A stretch of 64,000 nucleotides of DNA. It comes from Peptoniphilaceae bacterium. GTDB lineage: Bacteria > Bacillota > Clostridia > Tissierellales > Peptoniphilaceae. The DNA is taken from positions 21,135-85,134 of the forward strand of contig JALEKO010000001.1 of the NCBI GenBank assembly GCA_022769085.1. Reading direction: 5' to 3'. Position 1 is the first letter of the stretch. Each line of letters starts with the position of its first letter. Below are positions 31,307 through 34,485 of the stretch, piece after piece. The position numbers and the translations under genes are program-made. The notes below the pieces were generated by a model. The model worked only from the letters and a program-made list of their open reading frames with translations, ran no database searches and was not told where the DNA came from.

Positions 31307-32314
31307 ATGAAAAACAAAATTAAATTTAAAACCATACTTACAGCTGTAGCAGTTGCAACTTCACTTGGGTTAAATTCAAAATCATATGCATCAGATGAAG
31401 AAGTTGTTGAAGCAATTGAAAAAGAAATAACAGATGAAGATTTATCTTTAGAAAATAAAAATGAAGAAATAAAAGAAGAAACAGAAAAAGAAGACAAGAT
31501 TATAGAAAATACAGAAAACTTAGAAGAAAGTGAATATAAAGAAAACGAAAATATAAAAAACAAAAATTCAAATGTTGAATATCTTACTTTTGAAAAACTT
31601 GAAAATCCTAAAAATGTAGAATACGAAGAAGTTCTAAAACTAAATGAAAAGCTTGAAACTACAAAAGATTATGAAGAAAAAATACAACTAATAGAAAATA
31701 CTAAAAAAAATATAAAAGATACGGAACTTTTAGCACTGTTAGATAAAATAAAAGAAGCATTAAATAAAAAAGAAAATAGTGCAAATAACTTAATACTTTT
31801 AGAAGATGAACCAGAAAAAGAACAACAACAAACTATTGCAGACCAAGTTGTTGCACTTGTAATGCGACCTATGTCATATAATCTATATGAAAATACAAAA
31901 AATGAAGTCGAAAGAGGAAGAACTCTTTATGCAACAATAGATATTTGGACTTCTTACGGTTGTGATGATGGAGAAATAAGGCTACTTAGCTATCCAAATA
32001 ATGATAAAATAGATAAAGATTATGGTTTAATGAATGACTGGACTTTAGATTTCAATGCTGAAACTATGGAAGAGTATTTAGAGCGTGTGCCTGAAGGTTC
32101 TGAACTTTCTATTGCTATTAATAACAAAACTGGTGTAACTTTATTTAATATTTATAAATTTACACCACCTGAAGATTTTCCTTTAGGGGAAGTTGAAATA
32201 CCATTTAGAGTTACATTTTCTGATATGTCAATTAAAAATTTTACATATAAAGTAAATGTAGTGGAAAAAGTAAACGATGCAGATAGGTATGTATTAAAAT
32301 ATCCAAAAAAGTAG
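31307..32314 (+). CDS. Surface protein, N-terminal part (signal peptide, no anchor)
   Basis: 335 aa with Sec signal MKNKIKFKTILTAVAVATSLGLNSKSYA, followed by an acidic/lysine-rich region. Ends ..YPKK-TAG at an A6G run. Confidence 0.7.
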   Translation: MKNKIKFKTILTAVAVATSLGLNSKSYASDEEVVEAIEKEITDEDLSLENKNEEIKEETEKEDKIIENTENLEESEYKENENIKNKNSNVEYLTFEKLENPKNVEYEEVLKLNEKLETTKDYEEKIQLIENTKKNIKDTELLALLDKIKEALNKKENSANNLILLEDEPEKEQQQTIADQVVALVMRPMSYNLYENTKNEVERGRTLYATIDIWTSYGCDDGEIRLLSYPNNDKIDKDYGLMNDWTLDFNAETMEEYLERVPEGSELSIAINNKTGVTLFNIYKFTPPEDFPLGEVEIPFRVTFSDMSIKNFTYKVNVVEKVNDADRYVLKYPKK

Positions 32315-32346
32315 TTCAAAGAAATGGATTTAATGTAAGTAGCCTT

Positions 32347-34485
32347 ATGTATCCGCAAGAAATAAATACCAAAAGGACTATAACAACAAATGATGGAGTA
32401 TTTGTTTATGGAGATGACCCTTTTGATATTTATGGAAAAGATAAAGCAACAATAGAACCTAAAAAGTTTGAATTTGTTGAAAATGCACCAGAATTTTTAG
32501 AAATAGATGAAAAAACAGGAATTATTTCATTTAAACATGATGCACCTGATGAATTTGTAAATAAAAAGCTTGAGATTAAAGTAAAAGTAACTTATGAAGA
32601 TGACAGCTTTGATTATGCATTTTCAGAAATTTATATAGATGAAAATGAAGAAGATATTGAAAAATCATATATGGATGTTAACTATTCTTATGATGAAGTG
32701 CATCCTTTCCCAGTTGATTTATACTGGTTGGGCAATTACTTTGAAGGAGATGACACTTTAAAATTTATTTATAAAGTTTATCCAGGAGTTTCAGAAGGAA
32801 ATAAATTTGTATTAAAAAATTTAGACGGAGAAGTTTTAGGAGAACTTTTAGTTGACCCATATAATGAAGAAGAATACACAGAAAAAGATGTATATCTTGT
32901 TAATGATTGGGAACCTCTTAATGCAAGAATTGGAATTATAAAAATAAAAGATCCATCAAAAATGGGAAAAGCATCTGATATGTATAGGTTTGAATTAGAA
33001 CCTGCAGATAAAAATTTAAAGAATTTTGATTTTTCTTCATATAGTGGACTACGTCTGGATGAAAATGGTCCTTCATTTATTTCTTTTCCAATGGTATATC
33101 TAAAGCCAGAACTTAGTGATGAAATTTTGACAGTTCCAATTAATGGAAGTTTAAAAGAATTTGCTAGAGAGCCTTTTTTGACAGAAAACTACGAAAGAGC
33201 ATTTTATAATTTTTTTAAACAAGCTGATAAAGCTTTATACAATCGTATTGAGTGGGTAGAAAAACCTAGTACAAAAACACCTGGTTTAAAGTATGGAAAA
33301 GTAAAAGTTACATCACAGTTTGGTAGAGTTATTCCTTATGGTGAACGATATTTAGAATTGCCATTTTTTGACGTATCAATTTTAGATAAAAACCCAGAAG
33401 AATTAGATAAATATAGTTTTGAGCATTTTGGCAGAAGTGAACGGGTAAATTATATAGAACATTCAAAATGGGAATTTGAAGTACCAATACTTGTAGAGTT
33501 TGGAATAAAGCCAATTGAAGATAAAGAATATACTGAAGAAGAAAAAATAGACGAAATAGCAGTTGAAATACTTAGAACAAATATAACCAAAGGAAAAGTA
33601 ATAGCAGAAATAAAAGAACTTCCAGAATATCTTACATTTGAATATGACAAAGAAAAAGAAATAGGAAGAATAACAGGAAAATCACCAAAAATAAATGATT
33701 GGAAAGAAGACGAAGAAGAAAGAAATTATGAAATAACAGTAACTGCAAAAGATGAAGAAGGAAATGAAACATTAGAAACTTTCACAATAAAAATTAAAAA
33801 AGACAAAATACCACCAAAAGTAACACCAATAGATGATAAAACAGTAGTAGAAGGCGTAGAAATAACACCAATACCAGTAACAACAGATGATAAAAAAGCA
33901 ATAGTAACAGTAGAAGGATTACCTGATGGACTAACATACAATAAAGAGACTGGACAAATCGAAGGAGTTCCAACAAAGAAAGACGATTGGGGAGATGACA
34001 AAGAAAAAGAAATTAAAGTAACAGTAAAAGCGAAAGATGAAAATAACAACGAATCAACCCCAGTAGAATTTACGATCACATTACAAAGAGATACAGATGG
34101 AGATACAAACCCAGATGTAACAGACAAAGATGACGAAGGTAAATCAATCCCATGGACAGACATTGAAGACATAGCAAAGCCTATAGAAAAAGAAGAAGAA
34201 CATAAATCAATCCCGTGGACAGACATTGAAGACATAGCAAAACCTATAGAAAAAGAAGAAGAACATAAATCAATCCCATGGATAGATATTGAAGACATAG
34301 CAAAACCTATAGATAAAGAACAAAGCGAAGATGAGAAAGATGCAACTACAAAAACTATTGATAAAACAGTAGCTTATAAAACATCTACAACAAATCCAAA
34401 AACAGGTGTTTTATCAATAACAGGACTTTTAGGAGCGGTTGCAGCAGCTGCAAGTGAACTTGAAAAAAGAAAAAAAGATAAATAA
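32347..34485 (+). CDS. Surface protein, C-terminal part (Ig-like repeats, NPKTG sortase signal, no signal peptide)
   Basis: 712 aa with no signal peptide and no SD before the ATG. The frame is open upstream to 32287. The C-terminus is NPKTG, then a hydrophobic stretch, then KRKKDK. Probably continues the upstream ORF. Confidence 0.7.
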   Translation: MYPQEINTKRTITTNDGVFVYGDDPFDIYGKDKATIEPKKFEFVENAPEFLEIDEKTGIISFKHDAPDEFVNKKLEIKVKVTYEDDSFDYAFSEIYIDENEEDIEKSYMDVNYSYDEVHPFPVDLYWLGNYFEGDDTLKFIYKVYPGVSEGNKFVLKNLDGEVLGELLVDPYNEEEYTEKDVYLVNDWEPLNARIGIIKIKDPSKMGKASDMYRFELEPADKNLKNFDFSSYSGLRLDENGPSFISFPMVYLKPELSDEILTVPINGSLKEFAREPFLTENYERAFYNFFKQADKALYNRIEWVEKPSTKTPGLKYGKVKVTSQFGRVIPYGERYLELPFFDVSILDKNPEELDKYSFEHFGRSERVNYIEHSKWEFEVPILVEFGIKPIEDKEYTEEEKIDEIAVEILRTNITKGKVIAEIKELPEYLTFEYDKEKEIGRITGKSPKINDWKEDEEERNYEITVTAKDEEGNETLETFTIKIKKDKIPPKVTPIDDKTVVEGVEITPIPVTTDDKKAIVTVEGLPDGLTYNKETGQIEGVPTKKDDWGDDKEKEIKVTVKAKDENNNESTPVEFTITLQRDTDGDTNPDVTDKDDEGKSIPWTDIEDIAKPIEKEEEHKSIPWTDIEDIAKPIEKEEEHKSIPWIDIEDIAKPIDKEQSEDEKDATTKTIDKTVAYKTSTTNPKTGVLSITGLLGAVAAAASELEKRKKDK
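34141..34320 (+). repeat. 63-bp tandem coding repeat, about 2.9 copies
   Basis: KSIPWTDIEDIAKPIEKEEEH occurs twice, plus a partial third copy. The DNA copies are near-identical. Confidence 0.85.

Follow-up and report, generated by a model that had tools for sequence, protein, structure and literature searches.

A probable inactivating one-base frameshift at or next to a short poly(A) run splits a sortase-type surface-protein gene in an uncultured Peptoniphilaceae lineage

Introduction

Are two adjoining open reading frames (ORFs), the first with an export signal and the second with a cell-wall sorting signal, two genes or the halves of a single one, and, if a single one, what has parted them? 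This question is raised by ORF1 and ORF2, which follow each other on the forward strand of a 64,000-nucleotide stretch of a Peptoniphilaceae bacterium assembly (GCA_022769085.1, contig JALEKO010000001.1, positions 21,135 to 85,134). The whole stretch is called the window below, and all coordinates refer to it. We report that the derivation of both ORFs from one gene, encoding an exported, sortase-type-anchored protein, is well supported, and that the reading frame of this gene is broken in the genome itself, at or adjoining a run of six adenines. We favour a fixed inactivating one-base frameshift, which would make the locus a pseudogene or an OFF allele, and we give this reading a probability of about 0.6.

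Results

Export and anchoring signals on separate reading frames

ORF1 begins as an exported protein does. Its N-terminus, MKNKIKFKTILTAVAVATSLGLNSKSYA followed by SD after the predicted cleavage point, displays a basic n-region and a hydrophobic core whose top 12-residue Kyte-Doolittle mean is 1.94. An E/K-rich region, a first RibLong domain and what are probably the first strands of a second RibLong domain follow in this order, and no cell-wall anchor is present. ORF2 carries the remainder of the second RibLong domain, a middle part of about 350 residues (100-450) for which we found no family match, two He_PIG domains, three 21-residue repeats and, at its very end, an NPKTG sorting signal. 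The latter was recognized by inspection as NPKTG, 16 hydrophobic residues (Kyte-Doolittle 2.13) and a charged tail (NPKTG-VLSITGLLGAVAAAAS-ELEKRKKDK). The NCBIfam models stayed under their cut-offs: the curated NPXTG model NF033846 gave 11.7 bits on ORF2 for a cut-off of 23.5, and no LPXTG model matched. Published work discusses NPKTG as a motif of the class-B sortase type. At the other extremity, the first 60 residues of ORF2 contain no hydrophobic segment (Kyte-Doolittle maximum 0.38). No Shine-Dalgarno (SD) sequence precedes its ATG, the bases in front of it being aatgtaagtagcctt, unlike most genes of the window, in which AGGAG-like sites lie 6-10 nucleotides (nt) upstream of the start.

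Sortase substrates require both an export signal and a sorting signal. As the locus is encoded, with six adenines (A6), the signal peptide and the sorting signal belong to separate polypeptides, and they are united only in a reconstructed fusion of 1059 residues. A first-pass annotation of the same DNA had credited ORF1 with a Sec signal peptide and no anchor, which translation and hydropathy confirmed, and had described ORF2 as devoid of signal peptide and SD sequence and ending in NPKTG, a hydrophobic stretch and KRKKDK, all of which held. Among the ORFs of the window, ORF2 is the only one with a sorting-signal-like tail, and the sortase TLxTC signature was found in none of them.

The frame break

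The frame of ORF2 is -1 (that is, +2) relative to that of ORF1, which ends in tat cca aaa aag TAG. Upstream of its ATG, the ORF2 frame stays open as far back as 32287, the preceding stop being at 32284-32286, and both frames are thus open together over 25 nt only (GTATGTATTAAAATATCCAAAAAAG). Since they are both open nowhere else, an insertion or deletion must fall in 32287-32311, and the A6 run, being the longest homopolymer within this interval, is the likeliest site of the lesion. A -1 slip at the A_AAA_AAG heptamer, or the addition of one A, gives a continuous protein of 1059 residues (..YPKKVVQRNGFNVSSLMYPQE..) with no internal stop, in which the junction reads YPKK-VVQRNGFNVSSL-MYPQE. The first-pass annotation had already noted that the ORF2 frame runs back to 32287 and overlaps the end of ORF1, that 32305-32311 reads A_AAA_AAG in the zero frame of ORF1, and that a slip or an extra A restores a 1059-residue protein; we obtained the same result on each count. 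It had also placed the frame change exactly at the heptamer. Here the part that stands is a break at or adjoining the A6 run, whereas the exact base lost is something that we infer.

The heptamer by itself is commonplace in this DNA, whose G+C content is 26.6%. The 52 large ORFs of the window contain AAAAAAG 90 times on their coding strands, nine times in the A_AAA_AAG register, and these nine are spread over 8 of the 52 ORFs. The coding sequence of the window (54 kb) holds 285 runs of at least six A, the longest being A9, and about 0.13 such runs are expected in any 25-nt stretch; on the forward strand of the window as a whole, we counted 197 A6, 90 A7, 29 A8 and 6 A9. Several normal operon gene overlaps in the window hold A-runs as well, with an SD sequence for the downstream gene. 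The finding therefore rests on the split export and anchoring signals, the absent SD sequence and the domain shared by the two ORFs, and not on the heptamer.

A RibLong domain on both sides of the break

The Pfam RibLong profile (PF18957) scores 19.4 bits on ORF1 (residues 266-318) and 27.0 bits on ORF2 (residues 39-93). On the joined protein it reaches 39.4 bits over two stretches, which exceeds the gathering cut-off of 27. With a RibLong repeat hidden Markov model (HMM) built here, the C-terminal core of the second domain is found with E = 5.9e-11. When the joined sequence was compared by BLASTP with the RibLong-repeat protein P0003, the alignments crossed the junction in four repeat registers. 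When aligned with 18 double repeats by MAFFT, the tail of ORF1 (VNDADRYVLKYPKK) and the VVQRNG encoded ahead of the ORF2 ATG fall on the canonical start of a RibLong repeat, to be compared with VTDADRNLAAYPGEAAV in P0005 and SNADKYQPEYGDMTVKQG in P0003, and the stretch 32312..32346 aligns with the second strand of these repeats. Annotated as intergenic, this stretch is a coding remnant.

A model of the region was computed with AlphaFold2 (AF2) from an input multiple sequence alignment built from RibLong repeats, so that the model is guided by that alignment. Its mean predicted local distance difference test score (pLDDT) is 70, with 80-94 in the core of the second domain. Two strands are predicted at the end of ORF1 and over the break, YVLK (ORF1 residues 328-331) and KVVQ (335-338), with mean pLDDT values of 79-84 by blocks of ten residues, and the initial methionine of ORF2 is placed in a low-confidence insertion loop of 15 residues. 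The top Foldseek match is the structure 6s5w, named 'Rib Long' (E = 5e-07, TMt 0.77-0.79), and 9avk gives a TMt of 0.82, with about 129 columns each; judging from this length, the match would run from the tail of ORF1 to about residue 90 of ORF2. The frame break thus probably lies inside the second RibLong domain, according to the alignment and the model. Because the topogenic signals are complementary and RibLong sequence is found on both sides of the break, we conclude that ORF1 and ORF2 originate from a single gene.

Occurrence in other assemblies

The exact 335-residue ORF1 protein is encoded on seven contigs. Three, that of the window included, are from NCBI metagenome-assembled genomes (MAGs) named 'Peptoniphilaceae bacterium', with the ORF1/ORF2 protein accessions MCI5838979/80, MDD7383750/49 and MDY3737851/52, and four are from Logan assemblies of separate Sequence Read Archive (SRA) runs (SRR21357579, SRR21357583, SRR21357813 and SRR21357935). 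All the recovered contigs read CC-A6-GTAG, with ORF2 starting 33 nt downstream. They differ from the window by 0-7 single-nucleotide polymorphisms (SNPs) and represent at least three haplotypes. Since A6 is present in seven assemblies of at least three haplotypes, the break is genomic, and a recurrent homopolymer error is unlikely. Moreover, the identity of the Logan contigs to the window is 99.8-100%, a level that noisy long reads would not be expected to give and that suggests accurate short reads.

One of the three MAG haplotypes (GCA_028724365.1, contig JAQYDD010000015.1) bears two further changes in ORF2, 11 nt apart and both G>T: W603L at 34154 and E607* at 34165. The latter ends the ORF2 product at 606 residues, before the anchor; ORF2 is intact in the other haplotypes. 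The variant sequence matches no other copy of the 63-nt repeat in which it lies, so that it is not a simple repeat collapse, and a low-coverage error is possible. This lesion gives a hint of relaxed selection, or of decay of ORF2. Apart from this, the end of the SRR21357583 contig (window 33994-34074) shows five SNPs in 80 nt, two nonsynonymous and three synonymous, and is otherwise identical; the sample may contain a second, more diverged allele of the 3' part of the gene.

With the whole fusion as query, the homologue search was swamped by low-complexity words of E and K, and nothing but the ORF2 cluster came out; with a 519-residue segment around the junction, it retrieved ORF1 and ORF2 themselves and no other protein. 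When 1.84e9 representative proteins were searched exhaustively with HMMER, no orthologue emerged, only large generic RibLong-repeat proteins (about 30% identity). DNA pattern scans of JGI metagenomes and GTDB genomes, in which A5 to A9 were allowed, gave 0 matches, and protein-guided locus searches of JGI metagenomes and GTDB representative genomes gave 0 confirmed relatives. The gene is lineage-restricted. As no A7 allele was found, the ancestral state is deduced rather than observed.

Other features of the locus

The features of the gene and of its surroundings are collected in Table 1. The count of promoter-like sites near ORF1 is not above that of shuffled sequence, which makes the putative site listed there weak evidence for a promoter. 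The 63-nt repeat also yields a spurious antisense ORF of 190 residues at 33726-34298. The split gene stands alone between two housekeeping units, thrS and the ilv genes, and no tRNA gene was found in the window.

Table 1. Coordinates of the split gene, of the features within it and of the neighbouring elements.
Feature	Position	Strand	Description and basis
T-box leader	28891-29069	+	Rfam RF00230, 93.3 bits; precedes thrS (29130-31061)
Promoter-like site, putative	31229..31256	+	TTGAAT-16-TATAAT, upstream of ORF1; consensus scan, 10/12 matches
ORF1	31307..32314	+	335 residues; 5' half of the split gene; terminates at TAG 32312-32314
Sec-type signal peptide	31307..31390	+	28 residues; predicted cleavage between SYA and SD; inspection and hydropathy
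RibLong domain 1, conserved core	32099..32260	+	ORF1 residues 265-318; Pfam PF18957 and RibLong repeat HMM built here, domain i-E-value 1.1e-05
RibLong domain 2	32276..32625	+	Begins with DADRYVLKYPKK in ORF1, probably spans the frame break, finishes at ORF2 residue 93
Interval open in both frames	32287..32311	+	25 nt; only place where both frames are open; bounded by stops 32284-32286 and 32312-32314
A_AAA_AAG heptamer	32305..32311	+	A6 run at 32305-32310; ORF1 TAG directly 3'; longest homopolymer of the 25-nt interval
Coding remnant annotated as intergenic	32312..32346	+	ORF2 frame open; reads VVQRNGFNVSSL from G32311; no SD sequence inside
ORF2	32347..34485	+	712 residues from ATG 32347; 3' half of the split gene
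He_PIG (putative Ig) domains	33814..34080	+	ORF2 residues 490-578; Pfam PF05345, 52.2 bits for a cut-off of 24, two stretches
63-nt tandem repeat	34122..34320	+	3.2 copies, 91% match (Tandem Repeats Finder); encodes KSIPWTDIEDIAKPIEKEEEH; lies shortly before the NPKTG signal
Sorting-signal region with NPKTG	34393..34482	+	Inspection and hydropathy
T-box leader	34644-34905	+	Rfam RF00230, 115.7 bits; precedes the ilv operon (ACT-domain gene, ilvC, ilvD, ilvB-like; 34970-39555)

Discussion

The first-pass annotation had offered three explanations for this locus, a homopolymer sequencing error, phase variation and programmed -1 frameshifting. The presence of A6 in 7/7 assemblies disfavours the first, and the last is unsupported, as the annotation itself had leaned to think. 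We favour an option that was absent from these three, a fixed inactivating one-base frameshift in a single surface-protein gene, since it is the simplest, requires no extra assumption and fits every observation.

We propose that the ancestral gene encoded an exported surface protein of about 1059 residues, consisting of a signal peptide, an E/K-rich stalk, two RibLong domains, an unassigned region, two He_PIG domains, three 21-residue repeats and the NPKTG signal. One A would have been lost from an A7 run (the ancestor probably reading CCA AAA AAA GTA), leaving A6 at 32305-32310. Ribosomes would then halt at the TAG at 32312 and release a secreted fragment of 335 residues that ends inside a domain, and the 3' part, with neither ribosome-binding site nor signal peptide, would probably not be expressed, so that the anchor-bearing portion would not be displayed. 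The resulting OFF or pseudogene allele would have become fixed in every assembly of the lineage that we recovered. Slippage could turn A6 back into A7 at rates usual for homopolymers, and spontaneous slipping on A_AAA_AAG-UAG may affect a few percent of ribosomes or less, but neither appears to be a specialized, selected mechanism.

Several observations weigh against this reading or weaken its support. An HMM restricted to the N-terminal third of RibLong repeats (35 columns) misses the junction region, and what places the break inside a domain is a motif-level alignment together with an AF2 model guided by it. Contigs were looked up by the exact ORF1 sequence, so that only A6 alleles could be returned, and consensus assemblies mask minority A7 subpopulations. 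None of the collections searched contained an A7 allele or a diverged orthologue (less than 99.8% identity). The E607* change, located within a tandem repeat of one MAG, is possibly an assembly error. Finally, ORF2 is open over 712 codons despite a G+C content of 26.6%. That it is still open in such an AT-rich genome would mean that the lesion is recent, that it is still reversible or that selection still acts on the 3' part, the last being in keeping with phase variation or frameshifting.

Phase variation is the rival that survives best, and one could take it as an unlikely but serious candidate. The A-run would toggle between A6 (OFF, with a secreted stub) and A7 (ON, with an anchored adhesin), selection would keep the gene, and the samples would be mostly OFF. 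A homopolymer frameshift in the coding region of a surface protein belongs to the classic target class, ORF2 is fully open, and the A7/A6 alleles of inlA provide a precedent for measurable reversible switching at an equal tract length. But the seven assemblies all have A6 and show no length polymorphism, within the limits of a biased look-up and of consensus sequences, and a tract of A6 or A7 is ordinary for this genome, neither unusually long nor hypermutable against the background. Switching would be expected at about 1e-7 to 1e-6, far under what classic contingency loci show, and the tract is not at the 5' end of the gene but one third along it (codon 335 of 1059). In addition, one MAG has an extra nonsense mutation in ORF2. 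We also looked in the window for other genes split at A-runs, as a sign of a genome-wide habit of phase variation, and saw only ordinary operon overlaps with their SD sequences.

Programmed -1 frameshifting on A_AAA_AAG, aided by the adjacent UAG, would lead a set share of the ribosomes to an anchored full-length protein and the others to the secreted 335-residue form. It has in its favour a heptamer in the correct X_XXY_YYZ register, a downstream ORF in the -1 frame, intact and without its own SD sequence, and a stop codon immediately 3' of the heptamer. A stop codon that is slow to decode in the A site can promote slippage in the P site, a situation known as a 'shifty stop'. A AAA AAG is moreover an established slippery sequence (PMC9307594). 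We nevertheless consider this explanation improbable. As the first-pass annotation had stated, no strong stimulatory hairpin is found downstream: bases 32312-32400 form no stable structure (-8.1 kcal/mol, z = +0.5), and neither a hairpin nor a pseudoknot stands within 5-9 nt of the heptamer. The moderate hairpin inside ORF2 at 32362-32433 (fold of 32270-32450, -30.1 kcal/mol, z = -1.86) begins about 50 nt 3' of the heptamer and is too distant for a classical frameshift stimulator. Upstream, inspection revealed no GGAGG-like or SD-like element within 20 nt, the 10-14 nt spacing included. The heptamer stands in the same register in 8 of the 52 large ORFs, a short form stopping 12 residues into a RibLong domain would be atypical of evolved two-product systems, and no diverged orthologues were found that could show conservation. 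The frequency at which frameshifting arises spontaneously in vivo during canonical translation, about 1e-4 to 1e-5 (PMC9307594), also counts against it. One could still imagine that A_AAA_AAG-UAG works, in a Gram-positive anaerobe, as a recoding site free of a classical RNA stimulator, where tRNA-Lys would slip in the P site of a set share of ribosomes during the wait at UAG, one mRNA then giving both a secreted 335-residue protein and a wall-anchored 1059-residue adhesin; we find this very improbable.

Were the A6 run a sequencing or assembly error, the true genome would have A7, and the gene would be intact and single. Some platforms do make errors at homopolymers, and every source is a metagenome assembly, but the same A6 is read in three MAGs with separate protein accessions and in four Logan assemblies of different runs, which differ elsewhere by SNPs, the Logan contigs having a level of identity that points to accurate short reads, and we hardly believe in such an error. 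We give equally little credit to two separate genes without ancestral fusion, a small secreted protein and an independent one, as NCBI calls them in all three MAGs from two long and open ORFs, because the sorting signal of ORF2 would be useless without export, ORF2 has neither signal peptide nor SD sequence, ORF1 ends 12 residues into a RibLong start motif whose rest is in ORF2, and, ahead of its ATG, the frame of ORF2 is open and reads as the continuation of the domain.

The main consequence is practical and concerns annotation. In three public MAGs, the 'hypothetical protein' (ORF1) and the 'putative Ig domain-containing protein' (ORF2) are one disrupted gene and ought to be annotated so. 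The locus would also be one more instance, after inlA, of silencing at a short poly(A) run in a gene for a Gram-positive surface protein, here in a poorly known and uncultured lineage of Peptoniphilaceae. Homopolymer frameshifts are an ordinary and well-precedented route by which bacteria lose or switch off a surface protein. On the other hand, A6/A7 switching or a junction peptide, if true, would imply that a host-associated anaerobe regulates the display of an adhesin.

Comparison with known systems

A parallel can be drawn with the contingency loci of Campylobacter, Helicobacter and Neisseria, in which the length of a coding homopolymer also sets the frame of a surface-exposed protein. Their tracts are usually of at least 8 nt, often of G or C, and visibly polymorphic between or within strains, whereas the A6 run described here is typical of its genome background and invariant in the seven assemblies. 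With dnaX of Escherichia coli and the IS3-family elements, the locus has in common the identical heptamer in the same register and a downstream frame in -1, and nothing else. In dnaX, an SD-like element lies upstream of the heptamer and a stem-loop downstream, and in IS3 elements there is a hairpin or a pseudoknot. Such stimulators were not found here, and the site apparently lies inside a folded domain.

As for the encoded protein, its relatives are the Rib and Rib Long proteins, such as Rib and alpha C of group B Streptococcus, the Lactobacillus protein of structure 6s5w and that of Limosilactobacillus reuteri (9avk), which are exported, wall-anchored and built from tandem Rib-type Ig-like domains, as the reconstructed protein would be. 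It differs from them in that its RibLong domains are just two and diverged (about 25-30% identity to any relative), one with an insertion of 15 residues, and in that they are combined with He_PIG domains and an NPKTG signal; it has no close homologue among the 1.84e9 representative proteins.

The closest known case is the A7/A6 allele pair of Listeria monocytogenes inlA. In the poly(A) tract of this gene, A7 is in frame and A6 is frameshifted (Orsi, Bowen and Wiedmann 2010, PMC2831843), with rates of about 5.5e-7 from A6 to A7 and about 3.9e-8 from A7 to A6 (PMC2831843). There, the tract is at codons 3-5 and leaves a stub of 8 residues, whereas here it is at codons 333-335 of 1059 and would leave a secreted fragment of 335 residues. 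InlA is made of leucine-rich repeats and an LPXTG signal, whereas the present protein has RibLong and He_PIG domains and NPKTG. In some lineages the A6 allele of inlA has become fixed. Both inlA alleles are known from observation, whereas A6 alone was seen here. Beyond these differences, the likeness lies in a sortase-anchored surface-protein gene of a Gram-positive bacterium, inactivated when an A7 run loses one A and revertible by slippage, which is what we propose for the ORF1-ORF2 gene.

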